From IMG/VR virus record IMGVR_UViG_3300045988_057449, positions 1 through 44,248 of that record: 44,248 nucleotides of DNA. One strand, given 5' to 3'. The notes below the pieces were generated by a model that saw only the letters and a list, made by a program, of their open reading frames with translations, did not search any database and was not told the DNA's origin. The DNA is from a virus. Positions 1 to 44,248 of the stretch are shown here, piece by piece. The position numbers and the translations under genes were made by a program. Position 1 is the first letter of the stretch. Every line of letters begins with the position of its first letter.

Positions 1-55
1 CATACCTTGCGGTATGGGCGGGTATGTGGGTTGAATAGAAATTTTACCTTTCTCC
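1..55. repeat. Terminal direct repeat identical to 44194-44248 (circular-contig overlap)
   Basis: cataccttgcggtatgggcgggtatgtgggttgaatagaaattttacctttctcc is present at both window ends. A minus-strand ORF reads through the junction in frame. Confidence 0.95.
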
Positions 56-3186: not shown

Positions 3187-3924
3187 TTATTCCTCCTCAA
3201 TGCCGTAGTTCTCGATCATTTCGTTGACTGTAAGAATCAACTGCTCACAGGCGGCTTTCTTAATCGAGGTGAACTTTTCGGTCTTGATAGCGATTTTCTG
3301 AATGAACTCTTCTTTTGAGGGGTCGATTTCTTTCAGTTTTTTCAATGCCGCTTTCAATGCCGACTTCTGCAAGTCATCTGCTTCGCCGTCAGAGTTCGTA
3401 AGGGTCTTTTTGATTTCCTGTCGCTGCTCAGTTGTAGCGGGTTTCTTCTTAGGTGCGGGAGCGGGGGCATCTTCCGCTTCCGTGGTGTTGCTTTCGCCGT
3501 CAAAACTGTCGGCTTCCACGAGGTCGAGGACGATCATATACAGATAACGGCGATAGTAGGTTACTGCCGCTCCAACACCCTGTACCTCGTTCATACGGAA
3601 TTTTCCCGGCTCTGCGATAAACTGCAACGGGATTGAGAAATTGATACGCTCGTCCGGCTTTTCAGTATTGATTACAACCGCTTCGGCGTTGCCGTTTTCA
3701 AAAGTAGGCATAAGGAGCAGATTGTATTTTGCGAAAATCGGGGCGGCAACAGGAACAATGTCACTCAGCTCGAAATACATAAATTCGGCATGAAGATTTC
3801 TTCCTGTTTTCTTCGCTCCTGCGGCGTAAAATTCGTTACGCACGGCGAGGAGCTTAGACCACACATTCATTCCAGTTGTGTCAATGGCGGTCTGTTCGTT
3901 TGTTGCGGGTTTCTTTGTAGGCAT
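3187..3924 (-). CDS. erf: ERF-family single-strand annealing protein
   Basis: NVWSKLLAVRNEF...YFELSDIVP...GAAVTYYRRYLYM. The acidic/Pro-rich C-terminal half is typical of ERF. Confidence 0.75.
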   Translation of the reverse strand: MPTKKPATNEQTAIDTTGMNVWSKLLAVRNEFYAAGAKKTGRNLHAEFMYFELSDIVPVAAPIFAKYNLLLMPTFENGNAEAVVINTEKPDERINFSIPLQFIAEPGKFRMNEVQGVGAAVTYYRRYLYMIVLDLVEADSFDGESNTTEAEDAPAPAPKKKPATTEQRQEIKKTLTNSDGEADDLQKSALKAALKKLKEIDPSKEEFIQKIAIKTEKFTSIKKAACEQLILTVNEMIENYGIEEE

Positions 3925-3945
3925 GATGAATATCTCCTTTACAAT

Positions 3946-4542
3946 TTAATTAAACCATTTGATAATAGGGGCTTCCGTATTGCCCTTTTCCCATATAAAC
4001 CAAGCGTATGTAACTGCGTTTGACTTTGAGTATTTGTCGAAGTCTCCGTTCATAGCGCAGCACAATCGGCTTGAAGATACATAGACCTTTCGGGGGGGGG
4101 CTTTCTCAAAGAACGCTCTTCTTGCTTTACCTTCGAGAAATTGCAGTTTGAGGAACATTGCGACTTTGTGACCGTCTGTGACAACTTCGAGAGCCTTTTC
4201 AACGAACTCTAAGGCGTATCTGTACGGAGGGTTTGTGATTATATCCCCGTCATACGGGCTGTCCCATTGCAGGAAGTCTATACCTCCTAAGCCATAGCCC
4301 CGGTCTATCAGGTCTGTCGAAAAAACCTTGTGTCCGTGATTTTTTAACACCTTCGATAAGTGTCCCTCTCCGCAAGCACATTCCCAAATGTTTTCGGAGA
4401 ACTCTTCTTCCTTCAAAAGAAGTTCAAGGGCTTTTGGCTCTGTCGCATAATAGTCATTCGTTTCTCGTTCCTCCAATGCGTAGTTTCTTGCACCGAGGGT
4501 GGCATGAGCGGAACGGCTATTGCCTGTCCAATCTTTCATCAA
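3946..4542 (-). CDS. N6-adenine (or N4-C) DNA methyltransferase, NPPY type, orphan
   Basis: Motif I ECACGEGH and motif IV DIITNPPY. No adjacent endonuclease gene. Confidence 0.7.
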   Translation of the reverse strand: MMKDWTGNSRSAHATLGARNYALEERETNDYYATEPKALELLLKEEEFSENIWECACGEGHLSKVLKNHGHKVFSTDLIDRGYGLGGIDFLQWDSPYDGDIITNPPYRYALEFVEKALEVVTDGHKVAMFLKLQFLEGKARRAFFEKAPPRKVYVSSSRLCCAMNGDFDKYSKSNAVTYAWFIWEKGNTEAPIIKWFN

Positions 4543-6386
4543 CTCACCTCCTCCAAGATTTTAAGTGCCTTTTTCGCAAGAGCGTTTATCTTACGAGTGT
4601 TCTTTTTCGGAGGTTTAATGCCAAGAAAGTCGTTGATATATCGGCTTGCGAGTTTGATGTACCATGTTCGATCGAGACAGTCGATGCTTTGCTCATTGTT
4701 ATTGTCGATAATGCAGTGTTCCGGCAATCCTCCGATTTTGACATCGTTACCTTTCTCCGCATGGCGTTTGAGGAGAGTTCCGTACTTTCTGTCTTTTGCC
4801 GCATAAACACGGTTACACTTCTGTACTTGAACTTTCTCACCGTCCACAACATGATAGGCGGCAGTATATTTACTCGATGCTTTCGCCACAAGTTGGAATG
4901 ATAGGAGATCATTGCAGCCGTTAATTGTGTCTTTCACGGGAACGCCCTTTGCGAAATAGTCGAGTAAGGCTTTGGCAACGATAGTCGCATTATTGTTGAT
5001 GTTGAACGCTCCTGCCGGAGCGATACCTCGTACCAACTGACCGCCTTTGATCTTAGTGCTACCGTCAATGGCAATTTCGATGTAGTTATTAACATCCTTT
5101 TGCACGATTTCGGCGATACAATCTTCCTCCAACTCAAACCCCGTTCTGTCCTGCCATTCCTGACAAATGGCGTTGTAGATTTCAAGGTCGCAGTTGTCGA
5201 GAGAGACCATGATGCCGTCTGTGTTCAACTGTACGATTTTCAAAGTCTCACACTCAGCCACAAGATGATTAGCCAATTCCAACAAGCGCAACTGCCCGGT
5301 TATGCACACCGACCGTCCCATAAGCGGGTCGTACAGTTCGTTGTACTGGTTGAGCATCCCGCCGTATGTGGTATTAGCAACGAGTTTCAGAGCGTTTGCC
5401 TTTGCTTTATCTCCCGACCGTTTTGCCTGTATGCGTTGTTCCAACATATCGGCGTAAACCTGTGGATTCGGTATGTTACGGGAACAGTAATGGTCGAGTG
5501 TCATTAAATGAGGGTAATAACTCGCCACATCCCTGTTTCGTATAGAGCGGTTTTCTGTGGCTCTCTCCCGATAAGTCGGGATAGCACCGTGTATGCCGCC
5601 GTAACCAATCGTGCATTGACAATCGCCTATGTTGAAATTGAGTTTGCTTGAAAAGATCTCGTAATCGCTTATGGTTTTGTCATGTAGTCGGTCGAAGAAA
5701 GCGAACACATCGTCAGGGATGTACCTCCGCAATATGTTTGACGGATATACATACTCTCGCTCGTCCGTGTATTCAACCGTCCTGTGTGCATCGAGATATG
5801 CCGCTGTCAGTTTGGCGTTTGTCATATACATTGCCTTGCTGTCAGATATGCCCTTTGCTCTTCCGAGGAATATTTTGTTGTCGAGGTAATTCTTCCGTAG
5901 GTAGTAGAGCTTTTCGGTTGCATCCACATCGTGTTTGCAGTAGAATATTACCTCTTGCAATTCTTCTTCGGTGAGGGGACGGTCAATGTTGAAATCAACG
6001 GTCGTTTCTCGAATATCCATACCGAGGTGGGCTTCGATTGCTTTAAGGGACAAACCCATTTGACAATCGTCCATAAGGTCAAATTGATCGAAGTAAATGT
6101 TTATCTCACGCATTAACGGATACTCCCAACCGTTACGCCCCTCTGCGATTATGAAATCGTTGAGTTTCTTTACTTCCTGTGGGGATGCATCTGCAAGTAC
6201 GGCTTTGTGAATGAACTGGTCGTAGTGCTTATTGTTGAAACCTCCAAGCACAGGCTCGCATTCTTCCATAAACGCCTTTGCCGCATCGTTGTCGTTATGG
6301 ACAATCGTGTAATTATCCGTACCGGCTTCCTTTGCAACGAGTACCCAATCGAAAGCAAAAACCTCGTAGTCGAAAATGTGTATCAT
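4539..6386 (-). CDS. DNA polymerase with N-terminal 3'-5' exonuclease (family-B-like motifs)
   Basis: Exo I FDYEVF, Exo II NNKHYDQF, Exo III YCKHDVDA. Polymerase motifs RDVASYYPHL (A), KLVANTTYGG (B) and LNTDGIMV (C). Confidence 0.7.
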   Translation of the reverse strand: MIHIFDYEVFAFDWVLVAKEAGTDNYTIVHNDNDAAKAFMEECEPVLGGFNNKHYDQFIHKAVLADASPQEVKKLNDFIIAEGRNGWEYPLMREINIYFDQFDLMDDCQMGLSLKAIEAHLGMDIRETTVDFNIDRPLTEEELQEVIFYCKHDVDATEKLYYLRKNYLDNKIFLGRAKGISDSKAMYMTNAKLTAAYLDAHRTVEYTDEREYVYPSNILRRYIPDDVFAFFDRLHDKTISDYEIFSSKLNFNIGDCQCTIGYGGIHGAIPTYRERATENRSIRNRDVASYYPHLMTLDHYCSRNIPNPQVYADMLEQRIQAKRSGDKAKANALKLVANTTYGGMLNQYNELYDPLMGRSVCITGQLRLLELANHLVAECETLKIVQLNTDGIMVSLDNCDLEIYNAICQEWQDRTGFELEEDCIAEIVQKDVNNYIEIAIDGSTKIKGGQLVRGIAPAGAFNINNNATIVAKALLDYFAKGVPVKDTINGCNDLLSFQLVAKASSKYTAAYHVVDGEKVQVQKCNRVYAAKDRKYGTLLKRHAEKGNDVKIGGLPEHCIIDNNNEQSIDCLDRTWYIKLASRYINDFLGIKPPKKNTRKINALAKKALKILEEVS

Positions 6387-9356: not shown

Positions 9357-9736
9357 TTATCAAGTGGTTTTCCACACTCGAAAATGTCTTTCGGTAACAT
9401 CGCCGATTGTGCATTGCGATAGGCTTTTACCGTAATATGCGGTATCATGTAGATACGGTTTTCGAGTTTTAGAGCAAACCAACCTTCTCCGTTGTAGCAA
9501 TCCCGCCACAACTCCATCGAAAGGTCTTGATTTTCCTCCATACGAGATAGGTCAAAGCCTTTGCGGGTCGAGCATACTTTGCAGTCGATCAAATACGCTC
9601 TCTTGTTTTTAACCGCAATGATGTCGGCGGGTTGACCGTCCTGATTTTGAGCGAAATTGTGGCACCAGTAGCCCTGTTCGGAGAGCATTTCGCACAACTC
9701 CTTTTCAAAATCGTTACCAAGTTTCTTATTCGTCAT
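9335..9736 (-). CDS. Holliday-junction resolvase (Hjc/RecU-like PD-(D/E)XK)
   Basis: GQPADIIAVKNKRAYLIDCK has the D...(D/E)xK arrangement. Small size and replication-module context. Confidence 0.55.
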   Translation of the reverse strand: MTNKKLGNDFEKELCEMLSEQGYWCHNFAQNQDGQPADIIAVKNKRAYLIDCKVCSTRKGFDLSRMEENQDLSMELWRDCYNGEGWFALKLENRIYMIPHITVKAYRNAQSAMLPKDIFECGKPLDKWIKLCR

Positions 9737-10277
9737 CTTCGTCAGCCCCTACGAGATGCGCCTGACGGCGCAATTTCAGATTCTCGGATGAGAAAAGACA
9801 AGCCGGGGCAACCCCGAGACTGTTGTACGCAAGGCTGATGCTGACAACGCCTGTCGTATAGACAAAGCGCACACCGTACGAACTCGAGGGGTTGCAAGTC
9901 CACGGAGTAAGTGTCCACATCCATTCCTCGAAAAGAGGGACAATTTCACGATACTTACGGTACTGATCGCAAGAGAGAATCGTTACATAGTCCTCGCTCG
10001 TGCCATACGCCTTATCTCCGTTATCTGCAATCAGGTCAGAGGTCTGCTTAATAAGGTGTCTCCTGTCGAGAAGGTCAAGGAAGTCATTGTTCAGAACACG
10101 GCGCAATGAGGATTTACGCCAATCGTTCTTTCCGTCAGTATCAAACGGGATTTCTGTATAGGGCTTAGCAGTCATTGCGAGATAGTTGCCGCCGATAATA
10201 TCAAGGCAGATAAATTCGATTCCGTTATAGATAAAGTGTTCACCCGGATTAAGGGCTTCGTTGTTAAATTTAGACAT
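9726..10277 (-). CDS. DGR target protein 2 (DUF6273-like, C-type-lectin-like variable C-terminus) in the early operon
   Basis: NDWRKSSLRRVLNNDF and ILSCDQ...MWTLTPW framework. The C-terminal NPSSSYGVRFVYTTGVVSISLAYNSLGVAPAC is encoded by VR2. GGAGG lies 8 nt upstream of ATG 10277. Confidence 0.8.
   Translation of the reverse strand: MSKFNNEALNPGEHFIYNGIEFICLDIIGGNYLAMTAKPYTEIPFDTDGKNDWRKSSLRRVLNNDFLDLLDRRHLIKQTSDLIADNGDKAYGTSEDYVTILSCDQYRKYREIVPLFEEWMWTLTPWTCNPSSSYGVRFVYTTGVVSISLAYNSLGVAPACLFSSENLKLRRQAHLVGADEDDE
9758..9771 (-). promoter_or_regulatory. GC hairpin with 4-nt loop 3' of VR2 (candidate DGR target-recognition hairpin)
   Basis: gcgcc-tgac-ggcgc lies 26 nt from the VR2/TR homology boundary (31 nt from the GC block). 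It has the same TGAC loop as the hairpin beside VR1. Confidence 0.5.
9798..9894 (-). repeat. DGR variable repeat 2 (VR2)
   Basis: Gap-free alignment to TR 17225-17321. All 17 mismatches in the 92 positions 9803-9894 are at + strand T (coding-sense A) of the TR. Confidence 0.9.
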
Positions 10278-10429
10278 TAAAATTTCCTCCTAATTCTGTG
10301 CATATCGTTATAGATACGCTCTTTTTCTTTAAGCTCGTCCCATTCCTTTTTCCACGACTTGTACCGTTCACATTTTGAGTGGCAGCCGGGGTAACGGTCG
10401 GGACAGTCTTTACATGGATTCTTCATCAT
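10277..10429 (-). CDS. Small Cys-rich protein (50 aa)
   Basis: MMKNPCKDCPDRYPGCHSKCERYKSWKKEW.... I trimmed the start to ATG 10429 because the longer ORF overlaps the upstream gene. Confidence 0.4.
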   Translation of the reverse strand: MMKNPCKDCPDRYPGCHSKCERYKSWKKEWDELKEKERIYNDMHRIRRKF

Positions 10430-10562
10430 AGTTGTAGTCCGGCTTGTCATTGAAACAGGAAGTGTAGCAGTTTTCACACCAAAGTTCTTCTTCCACTTCG
10501 TGTATCGGCTCTGCCGAGAGGATTTCTTTTCCGCAATTCCAACACAGGCATTTCACTTCCAT
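10410..10562 (-). CDS. Small zinc-ribbon-like protein (50 aa)
   Basis: Translated by hand as MEVKCLCWNCGKEILSAEPIHEVEEELWCENCYTSCFNDKPDYNYDEESM, with two CxxC pairs. AAAGGAAG ribosome-binding site. Below the ORF-track cut-off. Confidence 0.4.
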   Translation of the reverse strand: MEVKCLCWNCGKEILSAEPIHEVEEELWCENCYTSCFNDKPDYNYDEESM

Positions 10563-10596: not shown

Positions 10597-10652
10597 GAGG
10601 TTTTACCTTTGCCGCTTTGTGAAGTGCGAGTTCACGGGCGGCTTTATTTTTT
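10597..10652 (+). ncRNA. Candidate ~55-nt antisense small RNA (promoter-to-terminator unit)
   Basis: The predicted start is about 7 nt after the -10 box. The compound hairpin GCCGC...GTGAA-gtgcgag-TTCAC...GCGGC (10611-10642) is followed by tttatttttt. The T-run is on the + strand only. Confidence 0.3.
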
Positions 10653-11309
10653 GTAGTTCTCATAAGCCGTTATTACCTTTTCGGTATATGAGGTCGAATA
10701 GACACCCTGTTCCCACAGCCTTTTTGCTCCCGTTGCCCCACAGTTGTATCGCATAAGAGCCAAAGAGATGTCTCCGTCTGTGGCTTCAAGATGAGAGGAA
10801 ATGATATAAACTCCTGCAAGAATGTTTTGTTTCGGGTCAAGAAGATTGACAATATCAAGTTCCTCACAGAGCCATTCGTGATTACAGATATTGATCTGCA
10901 TCAGTCCGTAATCGTCTGTTGCGCTAATAACATCTGCACGGAAACCGCTTTCGACTTCGATCATTCCATAAACGAGTTCGCAAGGAACATCGTATGTATT
11001 ACACACGGAGAAGATATAGTCTTGCAATTCTTTTGAAAGCGGAACATCGAAGTATCTAACCGTTGGCTCTGAACTTTCTTCGGGTTTACACATTACAGAA
11101 ACAGACGAAGATATACCTTCTGTTGTCGGGCTAACTGTCTGTGGCACAGCGGTCATCCTTGTCCCGTCTGCAATGTCAATCGCCTTTGAGTTGAATGTGA
11201 GTGCGCCGACCAATAGTCCTAAGAGAAAACTGAAAACGATTATTCCTCCTAACACTAAATATCCGGCGTGTTTTCTTATCCACCTCTTTCTTGTTCGTTT
11301 TCGTTGCAA
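10644..11309 (-). CDS. Membrane-anchored lytic transglycosylase (SLT domain)
   Basis: N-terminal TM segment YLVLGGIIVFSFLLGLLVGAL. SLT catalytic block MIEVESGF...YGLMQIN. The start is a TTG with AAGGAAGTG upstream. Confidence 0.75.
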   Translation of the reverse strand: MQRKRTRKRWIRKHAGYLVLGGIIVFSFLLGLLVGALTFNSKAIDIADGTRMTAVPQTVSPTTEGISSSVSVMCKPEESSEPTVRYFDVPLSKELQDYIFSVCNTYDVPCELVYGMIEVESGFRADVISATDDYGLMQINICNHEWLCEELDIVNLLDPKQNILAGVYIISSHLEATDGDISLALMRYNCGATGAKRLWEQGVYSTSYTEKVITAYENYKK

Positions 11310-11700: not shown

Positions 11701-11729
11701 TTGACAAGAGCGTTCTCTTATGCTATAAT
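11701..11729 (+). promoter_or_regulatory. Consensus promoter directed toward the repressor/integrase genes
   Basis: TTGACA, 17-nt spacer, TATAAT. The spacer contains the palindrome AAGAG-cgtt-CTCTT (11706-11719). Confidence 0.6.
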
Positions 11730-11823: not shown

Positions 11824-11852
11824 ATTATATCTAAGCCAACTTAGATTGTCAA
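11824..11852 (-). promoter_or_regulatory. Consensus promoter directed toward the Cro-like/early operon
   Basis: The minus strand reads TTGACA (11852-11847), 17-nt spacer, TATAAT (11829-11824). The spacer contains the palindrome TCTAAG-ccaa-CTTAGA (11830-11845). Confidence 0.6.
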
Positions 11853-15536: not shown

Positions 15537-16007
15537 TTACTCCACCTCATCCCATCCGTAAACTCCCGGCTGCCATACATTCGCATCGGTAGTAGACACC
15601 CAATGCTTGTTGTTATAGGAAACCTTATCGCCCTTAGCGTAGGCATCATGCGCACCGACCGGCTGAGACCATTCGGGATATTCCACCGTGGGGTCTCCAA
15701 TTTTCGTCCACAGAGAAGTAGCCGTGTCAGGTGTCCAATCACTCTGCGAAGTGTGTGCTTGTACACAACGGTACAGGTTTTCATTATAGAGACGGATCGC
15801 TCCCACCTCATAGGCAATACTCTCAACCCACGGGGAGAAGAGGGTTGCGTGTTCGGTAGCAGTCGTTTCGTCAATCGTCCCGGTTTCTGCGAGAGTGACA
15901 AAGGCGATAGCCGAAGCGGATTCTACTGAATCTTGCCGAGCGGAGAGGAGTTCAATCTTCCTGCGCTCACGGATAATCTGCTCCTTGTTGGATAAAAACT
16001 TGAACAT
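15537..16007 (-). CDS. Protein with two CBM5/12-like carbohydrate-binding repeats
   Basis: YEVGAIRLYNENLYRCVQAHTSQSDWTP and YAKGDKVSYNNKHWVSTTDANVWQP. ATG 16007 lies 5 nt after the RT stop and uses a GGAGG inside the RT 3' end. Confidence 0.5.
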   Translation of the reverse strand: MFKFLSNKEQIIRERRKIELLSARQDSVESASAIAFVTLAETGTIDETTATEHATLFSPWVESIAYEVGAIRLYNENLYRCVQAHTSQSDWTPDTATSLWTKIGDPTVEYPEWSQPVGAHDAYAKGDKVSYNNKHWVSTTDANVWQPGVYGWDEVE

Positions 16008-16012
16008 TTTTG

Positions 16013-17125
16013 TTACCTCCATAATTCTTGATAGTATTTGTACATTCGGTTTACGAGATTATAGGTATCTCCCTGTTCGGCGTGAGCTTTCCAACTCTTG
16101 AAACACTCATCAACCTGTTCTCTTGTCAGAAGCCCCGCTTTTGCCCGTTCTACCAATTTACGGAGTTTTCTCCGTTCGTGCGAGACCTTTTCCGGGAGGA
16201 CTTTCATTACTACTTTGCCGGTCGCAGTCAACCGAAAACTGAAACCTAAGAAATGGATAGGTTGCGTTATGGGAAATAACTGTGTCTTTTTCGGACTTAG
16301 TTTCAGTCCCAATGCCGTTACCCGTTCTTCTATCAGGGCTTTGCACTTTCGCAAGTAGTCTTTATTTTCGTGAACGAGGATAAAATCATCATTGTAACGA
16401 ATATAATGTTTAATGTGAAGTTGCTCCTTAATATAGTGGTCGAGGTCATCAAGCACCGCCAACTCTACAAGTTGTGTGACCTGTGAGCCAAGCCCCATTC
16501 CTATTTCGGGATTTTCACCCTGATTGAAACTTTCGATTATTCTCACCACTTCGGAAATTGCCCACTCGTCCGCTACACGCTTTCTAACGGCGGCAATGGC
16601 TACTTCGTGGGGAGTGCTACCGAAGAAGTTTGATAAATCACATTTTAGGACATAACCCTCAACACCATGCTTTCGGTAGTAGCGTTGTAAGTGGGCTTTG
16701 AGCCTGTCCCGTGCGAATTTAGTACCTTTACCTTTTTGGCAAGCGCAATTATCGTAAATAAACGACCTTGTGATTTCTTCGGTGAGGTAGTTATCGCAAA
16801 GGCTTCTCTGAAACACTCTATCCTTTATTCGAGTGCTTACTATATCCCTTTCCTTTGGCTCGTAGACTTTGAACATTGTATATTTGCTTAATTCGTATGT
16901 ACCATTCATAAGTTGTTCTTTTAGCGCAAGGCAGTTCACTAAGCCATTTTTCACATATCCTGCAACGCTGTCTTTCCAACCGACATTCCGCTTACATACC
17001 CATAGTGCAGCATACAAGTTTCCAAAGTCACAAACCGATTCTTTTACGCTTGATTTGTTTAACATAATTAAAATTAGTTGCCGTGTATAGCGATACTTGC
17101 TATTGGAAGCAAACCGCATCGGCAC
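16013..17125 (-). CDS. DGR reverse transcriptase
   Basis: RT motifs including GLGSQVTQ ((I/L)GxxxSQ-type) and YIRYNDDFILV (YxDD). GTG start with AAGGTGA upstream. Sits immediately 3' of the TR. Confidence 0.9.
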   Translation of the reverse strand: MPMRFASNSKYRYTRQLILIMLNKSSVKESVCDFGNLYAALWVCKRNVGWKDSVAGYVKNGLVNCLALKEQLMNGTYELSKYTMFKVYEPKERDIVSTRIKDRVFQRSLCDNYLTEEITRSFIYDNCACQKGKGTKFARDRLKAHLQRYYRKHGVEGYVLKCDLSNFFGSTPHEVAIAAVRKRVADEWAISEVVRIIESFNQGENPEIGMGLGSQVTQLVELAVLDDLDHYIKEQLHIKHYIRYNDDFILVHENKDYLRKCKALIEERVTALGLKLSPKKTQLFPITQPIHFLGFSFRLTATGKVVMKVLPEKVSHERRKLRKLVERAKAGLLTREQVDECFKSWKAHAEQGDTYNLVNRMYKYYQELWR

Positions 17126-17224: not shown

Positions 17225-17329
17225 ACAATCCGGGGCAACCCCGTTACTGTTGTTCGCATTGTTGTTGTTGACATTGCCTGTCGTATTGACATTGCGCACA
17301 TTGTTCGAATTCGAGGGGTTGGGAGAACG
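17225..17329 (-). repeat. DGR template repeat (TR), intergenic
   Basis: In the VR frame it reads RSPNPSNSNNVRNVNTTGNVNNNNANNSNGVAP (AAC/AAT-rich). It aligns gap-free to VR1 and VR2 and differs only at its adenines. Confidence 0.9.
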
Positions 17330-17342
17330 AGCTTAACAACTG

Positions 17343-17756
17343 CTAACCCATATTTTTATAGCGTTCCATATCGGATTTACGCCAATTCCTAAGCATCGTC
17401 TGAACTTCTGCCGTAATCTTGATCCAGTATTCCATACGGCTGTTCTCGATGCCGAACACTCTGTAAGAGATGTCCATCATACTAAGGAGGGAGTATGTCG
17501 AAGCAAGTGCTTTGGTTTGATACTGCTTGCGGATAGCATGATCGGCACTGTCTTTTACATATACCGAATTTGCCATATTTGCATAGTTGCTGATTTCAAT
17601 AGCGGCATCTACGATTTTGCTTGTAATACACCACCGATAATGCTTCGGAAAATTTTTCTCATTGGAGCATATCTTTATTGTGTATGTGGCAAGTTCGTTC
17701 GCTTTCGTGATTACCAACAACTGACCTTCTCCCCGTTTTGACTTAACTACCGACAT
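17343..17756 (-). CDS. avd: Accessory variability determinant (Avd-like four-helix-bundle protein)
   Basis: 137 aa, basic and helical. Sits between the target gene and the TR, as in canonical DGRs. GGAGG ribosome-binding site. Confidence 0.7.
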   Translation of the reverse strand: MSVVKSKRGEGQLLVITKANELATYTIKICSNEKNFPKHYRWCITSKIVDAAIEISNYANMANSVYVKDSADHAIRKQYQTKALASTYSLLSMMDISYRVFGIENSRMEYWIKITAEVQTMLRNWRKSDMERYKNMG

Positions 17757-17769
17757 ATATTCCTCCTTA

Positions 17770-17785
17770 CGCCCCTGACGGGGCG
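17770..17785 (-). promoter_or_regulatory. GC hairpin with 4-nt loop 3' of VR1 (candidate DGR target-recognition hairpin)
   Basis: cgcccc-tgac-ggggcg lies 22 nt from the VR1/TR homology boundary (27 nt from the GC block). No equivalent hairpin exists beside the TR. Confidence 0.5.
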
Positions 17786-17795
17786 ATTTCTGATT

Positions 17796-18704
17796 TTAGA
17801 TGATACAACAAGCCGGGGCAACCCCGTAACTGTAGTACGCATTGGTGTAGTTGACATTGCCTGTCGCATAGACAATGCGCACATGGCCCGAATTCGAGGG
17901 GTAGGGAGAACGCAACCACCAATACTGAGCCGTACCGTTTCTGTATTTAATACGATTGGTGTCTGCTCCTGTTCCCGCCGCCGTCAACGAAGAGTTATCC
18001 GAATAGTACGGGTAGACAACACCTTCGGAAATGTTATTATTCAAGCCTCCGTAAACTTCGGTCATAGACAACAGGAAGAACTTTTCGGTATTTGTGTCAC
18101 TACCGCCGCCGTCCGTTACTGTGTTTTTCGCAGTAATTTTAGAAACCTCACCCACCGTAGCAAGGAAGTCGGCATCAAGCCCTTTCATAAATCCTGCGGT
18201 AGAGGTTGCGTAGGTAGGCTGAACATCATAGTCAGTTTTTGCCGTCCACCAAGTACCGGGATTTCCGGCAGAATTAAGCCACTGTCGAATACCTGATTCA
18301 ACCCAATTATTAGAGCCGTAGGATTTACGGTTACTGTCAGGGTTAGTAGGCTCTTCGGCATCGAACTGGAATGTGCTTGCGGCGATACAATCGTGCAACT
18401 GAATTGTAAGGCTGTGCGTATAGTCCGTATTAACGGGAGTATCGTGGTCGATACCGATAATATCCCAAGTGAGTTTTCCGTAAGTTTCGTGATTGCACAC
18501 GAGCTGATCCCCTACGCTGAAAACCTTAGAAGCAATTCCGAGACGAACGAGTTGCTGAACGACCGACCAAGAGTCGATTTCAACGGGTGTACCCCCACCT
18601 CCACCGCCGCCACTCTGTGTAGCAATGGCTTTCAGTAGTGCGTTCTGCATATCCATCTTCTCAATGTAGGTGGATTCAGAAAGCAAGTTCAAAACATTAG
18701 ACAT
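17796..18704 (-). CDS. DGR target protein 1 (DUF6273-like receptor-binding candidate, C-type-lectin-like variable C-terminus)
   Basis: NNWVESGIRQWLNS, FFLLSMTEVYGG and YWWLRSP framework. The C-terminus YPSNSGHVRIVYATGNVNYTNAYYSYGVAPACCII is encoded by VR1. ATG 18704 has GGAGG 9 nt upstream, just after the stop of the upstream gene. Confidence 0.85.
   Translation of the reverse strand: MSNVLNLLSESTYIEKMDMQNALLKAIATQSGGGGGGGTPVEIDSWSVVQQLVRLGIASKVFSVGDQLVCNHETYGKLTWDIIGIDHDTPVNTDYTHSLTIQLHDCIAASTFQFDAEEPTNPDSNRKSYGSNNWVESGIRQWLNSAGNPGTWWTAKTDYDVQPTYATSTAGFMKGLDADFLATVGEVSKITAKNTVTDGGGSDTNTEKFFLLSMTEVYGGLNNNISEGVVYPYYSDNSSLTAAGTGADTNRIKYRNGTAQYWWLRSPYPSNSGHVRIVYATGNVNYTNAYYSYGVAPACCII
17808..17912 (-). 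repeat. DGR variable repeat 1 (VR1)
   Basis: Gap-free alignment to TR 17225-17329. All 12 mismatches in positions 17813-17912 are at + strand T (coding-sense A) of the TR. Confidence 0.9.
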
Positions 18705-18717
18705 CTTATTATCCTCC

Positions 18718-19695
18718 TTATGTTGTTGTGTTTTCGTTATACTCAATAACGGGCTTGCCGTTTACGAGCCTGAATTTCATAAGATAACTCTTATTGTTAT
18801 CCGTATCGGTAACGATGCAACCGTCTACCGCCGAACTATTGTAAGTGCCACCGTCTGTCCATTTTGTACCGTTGTGATAGTACCAATGTCCTTTCGTATA
18901 GCCCGTTTCCGTTCCCGTGTAGACATATATCCGATTGGTCTTTGTCATTCCTGCGGCGGTAGCCGCCACGAGCGGAGAGCCGTAAAAATCGGATATTTCC
19001 TTCGCTTCTTCTGCTGCCGCAGTTGCTTTTCCTGCCGCCGTATTTGCAGTTGCCGTGGCAGCATTTGCATTAGCAGTAGCAGTATCTGCCGCCGTAGCCG
19101 AGTTTTCAGCACTTTCAGCCGCTTCATTAGCAGCAGTTGCCGCCGTGGTTGCATCGTTAGCGGCGTTGGCAGCGGTAGTAGCGGCATTATTTGCGGAGGT
19201 CGTTGCCGCCTGTGCTAACTCCGTAGCCGAGTTTGCCGCCGTAGTAGCGGTCTCACAGGCTAATTTCGCATCGGAGACATCAGAAATAAGGGTGATAAGA
19301 ATATCGTAATTCTCGTCCTCCGTAATGTCCGAGCCTTCGTCTTCAGCCGCTTCAACATCGATCGAAAATGAGGTAGAGGTCAGTTTCTGTTCGTCCGATC
19401 CGATTACCGAAATACTGCACCGTACTACATCGTCAAGTCCAAGCATCCAGTTCGTAAGTGGGACAGTCACCGTGCCGTCCGCATTGACCGTACCCGCAAA
19501 CGCTTTTGAAGAACTGTCCGCTCTTTCGGCGTTGATGATCGCCGTTGCGCTTGACGGGATTTCGATTTTAACACCCTCGTTGCAGAGTGTGACTTTGAGA
19601 AATCGAGAATTGTTATCGTTCTGTTTTGCAACGATCGCTTGAAACAGGTTTTTCTTTGCGACATCAACAACAATCTCTTTCGTTATTTGAGCCAT
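18718..19695 (-). CDS. BppU-like baseplate/tail-fibre protein with Ala/Thr-rich coiled coil
   Basis: The N-terminus KNLFQAIVAKQNDNNSRFLKVTLCNEG resembles BppU_N. Long ATTAAN... low-complexity stalk. Confidence 0.55.
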   Translation of the reverse strand: MAQITKEIVVDVAKKNLFQAIVAKQNDNNSRFLKVTLCNEGVKIEIPSSATAIINAERADSSSKAFAGTVNADGTVTVPLTNWMLGLDDVVRCSISVIGSDEQKLTSTSFSIDVEAAEDEGSDITEDENYDILITLISDVSDAKLACETATTAANSATELAQAATTSANNAATTAANAANDATTAATAANEAAESAENSATAADTATANANAATATANTAAGKATAAAEEAKEISDFYGSPLVAATAAGMTKTNRIYVYTGTETGYTKGHWYYHNGTKWTDGGTYNSSAVDGCIVTDTDNNKSYLMKFRLVNGKPVIEYNENTTT

Positions 19696-44025: not shown

Positions 44026-44248
44026 TTACCTCCTATATTTCGTAACTGAGTTTACTATTGTTTGTATTTCCCCGACCGCCAGCGGGGGTTTACAAGCCGC
44101 TTGATTGGCTTTGAGGAGTTCTTTATAAATCTCCTGCTTTTTGTAACCTTGATTGTGTAACTGCCCTGCGAGAGAGGTTAGGCTAAGGTTTCTCATACCT
44201 TGCGGTATGGGCGGGTATGTGGGTTGAATAGAAATTTTACCTTTCTCC
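44026..44248 (-). CDS. Primase-polymerase, 3' part (PriCT-1-like C-terminal domain); same gene as 1-618
   Basis: Reading through the junction gives ...PIPQGMRNLSLTSLAGQLHNQGYKKQEIYKELLKANQAACKPPLAVGEIQTIVNSVTKYRR, ending at the stop at 44026-44028. Confidence 0.7.
   Translation of the reverse strand, partial: EKGKISIQPTYPPIPQGMRNLSLTSLAGQLHNQGYKKQEIYKELLKANQAACKPPLAVGEIQTIVNSVTKYRR
44194..44248. repeat. Second copy of the 55-bp terminal overlap
   Basis: Identical to bases 1-55. Confidence 0.95.

Follow-up and report, generated by a model that had tools for sequence, protein, structure and literature searches.

The 44,248-nucleotide (nt) virus record IMGVR_UViG_3300045988_057449 from IMG/VR, which was analysed over its full length and is called the window below, carries a diversity-generating retroelement (DGR) with one template repeat (TR) and two variable repeats (VRs). 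VR1 lies beside the DGR cassette in a large tail-module gene (target 1), and VR2 lies far from it in a small gene, the small target, among early and replication genes. Our central conclusion is that VR2 is very likely a genuine and active second target of the DGR, of the kind known as tgt2. The remote repeat had been pointed out in an earlier note made from the letters of this DNA, and the claims of that note are taken up where our results bear on them.

One template repeat and two variable repeats

9798-9894, minus strand: VR2, the remote variable repeat, encoding amino acids (aa) 128-160 of the small target; aligns to the TR over 97 nt without gaps
17225-17329, minus strand: TR, with 14 AAY codons in the VR frame
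17808-17912, minus strand: VR1, the proximal variable repeat; 105-nt match to the TR, with 13/13 mismatches at A
9726-10277, minus strand: small DGR target, 183 aa, 20.9 kDa, pI 4.9; a single DUF6273/C-type-lectin-like domain followed by a C-terminal helix and an acidic tail

Copies of the TR were sought with an ungapped scan of the whole window, using TR 17225-17321 as the query and allowing up to 35 mismatches. Only three were found, namely the TR itself and the copies at 17808 (VR1) and 9798 (VR2). VR2 is identical to the TR at 79 of 97 positions, and all 18 mismatches fall on adenines of the TR as read on the minus strand. Adenines account for 33 of the 97 nt, and the hypergeometric probability of the adenine-only mismatches in VR2 is 6e-11. 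This probability, together with the presence of only three copies, rules out a chance repeat as the origin of VR2. VR1 has 13 mismatches over the same 97 nt, every one of them at A, and its homology to the TR extends 8 nt further on the 5' side (105 nt). When VR2 is read in the frame of VR1, the 14 AAY codons of the TR become variable residues, and the repeat lies near the 3' end of its open reading frame (ORF; aa 128-160 of 183). VR1 and VR2 share one difference from the TR, near-fixed among orthologues: the TR codon GAT is GCT in both repeats (A-to-C, aa 159). This change probably marks the boundary between TR and VR, of the type described as initiation of mutagenic homing (IMH/IMH*), rather than a product of mutagenesis.

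The earlier note had proposed that one TR feeds two targets, and the adenine-only matches of both VRs to the single TR bear this out. Its gap-free alignment of VR2 with adenine-only differences also stands, and a non-adenine mismatch, which it had named as refuting, is not present in the 97 nt. Its counts need correction, to 18 from 17 for VR2 and to 13 from 12 for VR1. It had further read VR2 as the more diverged repeat, a difference (18 versus 13 of 33 mutable adenines) to which we attach no particular meaning. A 55-bp exact direct repeat at both ends of the window (1-55 = 44194-44248) indicates a circular assembly and therefore an apparently complete phage genome of 44,193 bp. On this circular map the previously given distance of 7.4 kb between VR2 and TR is correct; it does not carry over to integrated relatives, in which the integrase junction separates the two and the distance would be ~36.8 kb.

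Variation at VR2 among relatives

Diversification of the repeat was followed in 81 orthologous proteins of the same length with 79-94% identity. Mean Shannon entropy was 2.49 bits at the 18 codons that have a TR adenine in position 1 or 2, compared with 0.40 bits at the other 16 VR codons, and was low outside the VR; all 81 VR peptides were distinct. Relative to a random A-to-N expectation, the VR residues were enriched in Tyr (4x), Asn (3x), and Gly (1.8x) and depleted in Pro, Ala, Val, Arg, Leu, Phe, and Cys, a composition that argues for selection on a binding surface and not for decay. In a second lineage with another phage backbone (59 IMG/VR loci, 56-62% identity), positions 1 and 2 of the VR codons vary while position 3 is invariant. 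Judged from the codons, variation at positions 1 and 2 with a fixed position 3 is the signature of AAY and the reverse of ordinary codon drift.

These observations bear on the alternative that VR2 is a decayed relic, that is, a once-targeted or paralogous copy no longer rewritten by the DGR. A relic would be expected to gain non-A mismatches, of which VR2 has 0 in 97 nt. Its putative recognition elements are intact, as is its ORF, which is conserved outside the VR, and variation among the orthologues is confined to adenine-templated codon positions. Two close relatives do lend the idea some substance: in L015 (region 3731-5327) and L016 (region 654-1918), both target genes are still present, but a deletion has taken out the TR together with most of the reverse transcriptase (RT) gene and the 3' part of avd. 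The small targets of these loci, 80-82% identical to that of the window, are 'frozen' targets without a DGR, and the loci gave no TR/VR pair because the TR and RT are deleted. Targets without a DGR were likewise seen in Toutatisvirus by Egorov et al. (bioRxiv 10.1101/2024.10.15.618418). In a 2024 study of Faecalibacterium prophages, Lelie and CP11 are also without read-level variation in culture (PMC11792537). Taken together, we regard a relic as very improbable for VR2.

Distinct sequences are numerous in this family. The nd4-type and Toutatis-type clusters at 90% identity (P0123, P0133, P0220, P0145, P0180) hold 4,000-34,000 distinct members each, and the sizes of these clusters show DGR variation inflating the protein catalogues of gut metagenomes.

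Putative recognition elements at the two targets

9803-9817, minus strand: GC-rich inverted repeat at the 3' end of VR2 (TCGGGGTTGCCCCGG), identical in TR, VR1, and VR2; presumed cDNA-integration or IMH-like element
9757-9772, minus strand: hairpin after VR2, TGCGCC-GTCA-GGCGCA, 25 nt 3' of VR2 and within the coding tail (codons LRRQAH)
17770-17785, minus strand: hairpin after VR1, CGCCCC-GTCA-GGGGCG, 22 nt 3' of VR1

The inverted repeat, CGGGG-TTG-CCCCG, is present in all three copies (9803-9817, 17231-17243, and 17814-17826), and a scan flagged it as terminator-like in TR, VR1, and VR2, in the two VRs on the coding strand. The 3' ends of both VRs read GGGGTTGCCCCGG-C-TTGT, in which GGGGTTGCCCCGG is shared with the TR and the C is an A-to-C change relative to it.

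Each VR is followed by a hairpin with a GTCA loop, and these two are the only GTCA-loop hairpins with a stem of at least 5 bp in the 44-kb genome. They are also two of only three hairpins in the genome with a 6-bp GC-rich stem and a 4-nt loop, although the sequences of their stems differ. No hairpin was found after the TR. In BPP-1, a hairpin/cruciform with a GC-rich stem and a 4-nt loop, located 4-34 bp after the VR, is needed for retrohoming (Guo et al., PMC3240598). The paired hairpins of the window phage appear to mark exactly its two targets, and we assign them a putative role in recognition. The position of the VR2 hairpin within the coding tail (LRRQAH) may be the reason why the small target continues past its VR. 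In the related phages nd12, Toutatis, Lelie, and nd4, only ~35 nt of similarity is found downstream of VR1 and VR2, and this stretch also encodes the last beta-strand. The third 6-bp GC-rich hairpin of the window (5007-5022, CGCTCC-TGCC-GGAGCG) lies inside a 615-aa early ORF and has no VR-like neighbour.

From these elements a mechanism can be proposed in which one DGR, consisting of Avd, TR, and RT, would diversify two genes in trans. A complex of RT and Avd would reverse-transcribe the TR RNA with adenine-specific errors, and the resulting cDNA would take the place of either VR, each independently of the other, with the 3' GC element and the hairpin as guides. In the small target, the variable patch rich in Tyr, Asn, Ser, and Gly would presumably form a ligand-binding surface.

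The small target protein

10286-10290, minus strand: GGAGG ribosome-binding site, 8 nt before the ATG (10277-10275), read from the sequence

The ORF at 9726-10277 on the minus strand and its GGAGG site were both seen as the earlier note had described them, and so was the DUF6273-like framework: the protein matches Pfam DUF6273 above the cut-off (E 1.3e-6, 28.8 bits; cut-off 23.5). It also matches phrog_9958 over residues 7-165 (E 1.4e-47), and a protein search returned 2380 clusters of homologues. The concordance of ribosome-binding site, Pfam, PHROG, and the 2380 homologue clusters rules out a misread strand or frame. By tblastn it is found in Toutatis, Lelie, nd12, and nd4, with full-length identity to Toutatis gp24, Lelie orf58, nd12 tgt2, and nd4 tgt2 of 31-34%. 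Some homologue calls carry a C-terminal fusion to an esterase (P0129), a cell-wall hydrolase (P0147), or a low-complexity segment (P0160); these are singletons with abrupt junctions and were set aside as chimeric or frame-shifted calls.

The tail that follows the GVAPAC motif is 23 aa long, not 25 aa as first counted. A hydropathy check shows no signal-peptide-like or transmembrane segment, in agreement with the earlier note, but a missing signal peptide does not separate a cytoplasmic protein from one of the virion or one released by lysis. No tail-fibre N-terminal domain, beta-prism/beta-sandwich, immunoglobulin (Ig) domain, or other recognisable virion-docking domain was found in the protein, which is a single domain of 183 aa.

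Placement in the early operon

11824-11852, minus strand: early rightward promoter, TTGACA-17-TATAAT, a 12/12 match to sigma-70, upstream of a cro-like gene
11701-11729, plus strand: divergent promoter, 12/12 and with TG, for the cI-like repressor and serine recombinase

From their sequences, the divergent 12/12 promoters between the cI-like and cro-like genes are, as predicted elements, a textbook lysogeny switch. The small target is about the sixth gene of the rightward early operon, which crosses the ends of the window on the circular map. The order is cro-like gene, 70-aa ORF, membrane-anchored SLT transglycosylase, two Cys-rich ORFs, small target, and Hjc-like resolvase, followed by helicase, C5 methylase, the 615-aa protein, ERF and YqaJ, and primase-like genes. 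The start and the stop of the small target overlap the flanking ORFs, and the terminator-like scan found no strong minus-strand terminator between the early promoter and the gene. The small target would thus be transcribed from the early promoter beside the lysogeny switch, together with genes for recombination, helicase, and methylase. Both its description as an early-operon gene and the neighbours named in the earlier note, an Hjc-like resolvase downstream and two small Cys-rich ORFs upstream, are supported.

A search of related phages for a target among early genes, an idea also raised in the earlier note, found the same position across many unrelated backbones. Relatives that are integrated, on contigs of 143-231 kb, have the same order directly beside the host junction (integrase, cI, cro, SLT, Cys, Cys, target, Hjc, helicase, methyltransferase ... 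ERF, YqaJ, primase), and loci L011-L031 have a synteny like that of the window. In the second lineage, helicase-methylase, DUF3850, and DUF4317 genes lie upstream of the small target and PAPS-reductase, YopX, and D5-type primase genes downstream, with TerL 9.7 kb further on. The gene lies between repressor and replication initiator in Toutatis and Lelie, adjoins an RNase_T-type exonuclease in nd4, and adjoins Erf in the Roseburia phage Shimadzu (orf43). In 11 further prophage backbones (39-58% identity), the genes on the same strand within 3 kb encode HTH proteins, replication initiators, SLT, DNA methylases, PAPS-reductase, Mom, ParB, and sigma-70 region 4, and no capsid, portal, terminase, or tail families were found among them. 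Altogether, at least seven sets of backbones besides that of the window place the gene beside replication, regulation, and DNA-modification functions, and capsid, portal, terminase, and tail families are absent from its neighbourhood. The published descriptions of small targets, in their accessible parts, carry no remark on the genomic placement of the gene, and neither its conserved early-module position nor the hairpin pair appears to have been stressed in that literature. The consistent early-module position in many unrelated backbones, and the matched putative recognition hairpins at exactly both targets in this phage, may be useful additions to those descriptions.

Fusions and neighbours give further context. 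In nd12 tgt2 (L003 31285-32178), a DUF3310 domain (E 2.5e-16) makes up the N-terminal 67 residues, ahead of the lectin-like domain to which it is fused. The same domain also occurs in the early lactococcal protein SaV, which is toxic, in T7 gp1.7, and in cytotoxic early proteins of mycobacteriophages. The two Cys-rich (CxxC...CxxC) ORFs of the window are at 10277-10477 and 10410-10562 on the minus strand, and the nearer one overlaps the start of the small target. In nd4 a zinc-ribbon ORF occupies the same place upstream of the small target. Gene calls P0122 and P0128, which fuse a Cys-rich ORF to the target, hint at a functional link.

The gene for the membrane-anchored SLT lytic transglycosylase (10644-11309, minus strand) precedes the small target by two to three genes. 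Near tgt2-type genes elsewhere (L120 30548-31264 and L001 7828-8358 among the regions), cell-wall hydrolases are again found: SLT in 4 of the 11 other backbones, a Hydrolase_2 enzyme in Shimadzu (orf40), and a protein with a 3D domain in Toutatis (gp16). That the small target sometimes sits beside early cell-wall hydrolases and small zinc-ribbon ORFs may likewise add to what has been published.

Possible roles of the small target

The early placement is hard to square with the default assumption that the small target binds receptors. Because of the gene position, the missing domains, and the DUF3310 fusion of the nd12-type orthologue, we lean, by no wide distance from an even chance, towards a soluble, non-virion protein. 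As to where such a protein would work, we rate action inside the infected cell only slightly above action as a free lectin after lysis, each taken alone being well short of an even chance.

A different reading takes the small target as a virion-associated receptor binder or adhesin, similar to Mtd of BPP-1, which would attach to the phage tail or capsid by way of the helix and acidic segment at its C-terminus, the early position being incidental. The phage C-type-lectin-fold DGR targets of known function bind receptors (BPP-1 Mtd), the abundance of Tyr, Asn, Ser, and Gly in the VR is what binding sites typically show, and transcription in a single direction means that early products may last until assembly. 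A receptor-binding or adhesin role has also been proposed for orthologues in three papers (PMC10743442; bioRxiv 10.1101/2024.10.15.618418; PMC11792537). Yet the single 183-aa domain has no beta-prism/beta-sandwich, tail-fibre N-terminal, or Ig domain, and the phage already owns a target in the tail module (target 1). Moreover, in every backbone examined the gene lies among replication, regulation, or DNA-modification genes and never among structural ones, and the nd12-type orthologue carries DUF3310, a domain that early phage proteins contain. We therefore consider a virion-borne receptor binder possible, although short of an even chance.

If the protein instead acts early and within the cell, it could be a DGR-reprogrammable binder of a strain-variable factor of the host or a competitor, such as a defence protein. 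Consistent with this are the early operon with its consensus promoter and ORF overlaps, the conservation of the early-module placement, the lack of a secretion signal or transmembrane segment in the hydropathy profile, and the nd12-type fusion to the SaV-like DUF3310, which has been connected with sensitivity to abortive infection and with early proteins that are toxic. A cyanobacterial precedent for intracellular DGR targets is also reported (PMC7517822). The lectin-fold DGR targets characterised so far, however, bind surface ligands, and the small target matched no known anti-defence family, although PADLOC and anti-defence libraries were not scanned. In Toutatisvirus the gene is core even in the absence of a DGR, which implies that hypervariation is not essential to its role (Egorov et al.). 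An early intracellular role for the window protein is in our judgement rather improbable. We are similarly doubtful, and a shade more so, of its extension to tgt2-type proteins in general, as early, cytoplasmic, non-virion binders, reprogrammable by the DGR, that would recognise or neutralise some intracellular factor differing between strains, for instance a defence system or competing element. Were it true, this would be the first phage DGR to serve an intracellular arms race rather than adsorption, and it would widen the view of what DGRs are for.

Several points weigh against our preferred explanation of an active second target that has a recognition hairpin and encodes a soluble lectin-like protein. 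The diversification of VR2 is known from orthologue sequences at the population level, so that current activity of this particular DGR is presumed. The hairpins of the window have a 6-bp stem and a GTCA loop, compared with a published consensus of 7-10 bp and a GRNA loop (PMC3240598). A comparable GTCA-type GC hairpin is absent after the VRs of nd12, Toutatis, Lelie, and nd4; the hairpin is therefore not family-wide. An AlphaFold2 model built from a 105-sequence alignment was poor, with a mean confidence score (pLDDT) of 60 and values <50 in the VR, which was modelled as disordered. A Foldseek search with this model gave nothing significant in the PDB and only weak DUF6273 matches in BFVD. With no usable model, the lectin fold is argued from Pfam, from sequence matches to the PDB, and from published models of orthologues. 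The non-virion reading draws on gene position and missing domains only. In addition, transcription runs in one direction apart from the integrase and cI genes, so products of the early region could still be present at assembly.

Whichever role applies, the function of the small target is worth testing, as it belongs to a very abundant gut-virome family with thousands of 90% clusters, some with tens of thousands of variants.

The DGR cassette and target 1

16013-17125, minus strand: DGR reverse transcriptase; Pfam RVT_1 E 5e-16, phrog_1423 E 5e-93
17343-17756, minus strand: Avd accessory protein; phrog_3206 'Avd protein of DGR' E 3e-20
17796-18746, minus strand: target 1, the large target; C-terminal Pfam DUF6273 E 3e-25; last gene of the tail module

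All components of the DGR are on the minus strand, and the TR lies between the RT and Avd genes. By tblastn, the RT matches the DGR RTs of BPP-1, of Toutatis (Faecalibacterium phages), and of Roseburia phage Shimadzu, among others. In target 1, DUF6273 covers residues 128-315 of 316, the VR is at the 3' end of the gene, and a run of seven Gly lies near the N-terminus. Pfam and PHROG profile searches found no match to an Ig domain in target 1. The protein is not a tentaclin and resembles the tail-fibre target of Shimadzu. Its listed TTG start is probably 14 codons too early, and the ATG giving MSNVLN is the likelier start. Upstream of target 1 are an Ala/Thr-rich 325-aa protein and a 753-aa tail protein.

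Comparison with known two-target systems

A DGR with two targets, one of them a remote small DUF6273 protein, is already published for related gut phages. The novelty implied in the earlier note therefore does not hold, as the two-target design is in print, with read-level mutagenesis at both VRs of Shimadzu (bioRxiv 10.1101/575076). With the window, a further complete phage genome joins the documented phages whose single DGR diversifies a protein of the tail or capsid side as well as a small remote DUF6273 protein.

Shimadzu (LR596903.1) is organised like the window, with one TR and two VRs. Its proximal target is a tail-module protein with a VR in a C-terminal DUF6273 domain, and its remote target, orf43, is a 209-aa DUF6273 protein with the VR at the 3' end of the gene, located in the early/replication region directly upstream of Erf. 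Unlike the window protein, which has a 23-aa tail, orf43 ends at the VR; its neighbours are methylases and Erf rather than Cys-rich ORFs and Hjc, and it is too diverged to be found by tblastn with the window protein at E 1e-5. Cornuault et al. (2019) report that ~2% of Shimadzu virion reads carry 10-15 DGR-type mismatches at both VRs, and that both VRs were mutated in five of five evolved isolates (bioRxiv 10.1101/575076).

A scan for adenine-only repeats found one TR, one proximal VR, and one remote VR in a small protein in each of nd12, Toutatis, and Lelie, the remote VR having 13-14 mismatches to its own TR, all at A. The VR2 of nd4 was missed by this strict scan because of one G-to-T mismatch and was recovered by BLAST; VR2 of the window has no such non-A mismatch. 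All four phages also carry a DGR RT (tblastn). Like the small target of the window, nd4 and nd12 tgt2 are small single-domain DUF6273/C-type-lectin-like proteins with a C-terminal VR, 31-34% identical to it. Their genes also belong to the early/replication region, at a distance of 10-13 kb from the cassette of the DGR. In these phages the partner target is a tentaclin with N-terminal lectin and Ig-like domains and a VR near the 5' end, in contrast to the 3' VR of target 1 in the window, and nd12 tgt2 differs further by its N-terminal DUF3310. Baykov et al. (2023) describe the two 'tgt2' products as single-domain C-type-lectin proteins and propose an Mtd-like role (PMC10743442).

FP_Toutatis gp24, Lelie orf58, and the CP11 'small DGR target protein' also resemble the window in having a remote second VR in a small DUF6273 protein, and in Toutatis and Lelie this gene is again in the early region. 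Toutatis and Lelie differ in their Faecalibacterium myovirus backbones, in the low identity of the protein (~31%), and in having no GTCA hairpin after the VRs. According to Egorov et al. (2024), the second VR of Toutatis is 17,480 nt from the TR, its protein has a lectin-like AlphaFold3 model, and the small-target gene is core, being present in 98.8% of 173 Toutatisvirus genomes, even those without a DGR (bioRxiv 10.1101/2024.10.15.618418). The 2024 Faecalibacterium prophage study names 'large' and 'small' DUF6273 targets in Lelie and CP11, and its population alignments, as for CP11, have variation at both VRs (PMC11792537).

BPP-1 shares with the window an adenine-specific transfer from TR to VR and a VR at the 3' end of the target gene, whose product has a lectin fold in BPP-1 and probably also in the window. 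Both have a GC-rich element at the 3' end of the VR and, further downstream, a GC hairpin whose loop has 4 nt (PMC3240598); the two RTs are 29.5% identical. Its hairpin has 8 bp and a GAAA loop, compared with 6 bp and GTCA in the window, and it has a single target where the window DGR has two. That target, Mtd, forms the trimeric tip of the tail fibre; it has 381 aa, contains beta-prism and beta-sandwich domains, and is encoded beside the DGR, whereas the window protein is a 183-aa single domain from an early operon. Thus, the small target has neither the attachment domains of Mtd nor its location in the tail module.

Genome and hosts

The source of the window is a temperate phage of gut Clostridia. 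All of its genes are on the minus strand except those for the cI-like repressor and the serine recombinase. No close relative of the whole genome was found in the phage collection, in which the top match to the small target had 60.6% identity and the top RT match 69.6%. The nearest lysogens are metagenome-assembled genomes of gut Clostridia, assigned to Ruminococcus sp., Roseburia sp., Oscillospiraceae, and Lachnospiraceae.

Finally, a 161-aa protein encoded at 15537-16022 on the minus strand overlaps the stop of the RT gene and lies between the DGR and the lysis genes. It has two CBM_5_12 carbohydrate-binding modules and could serve the virion or the lysis system as another binder of glycan or chitin type.

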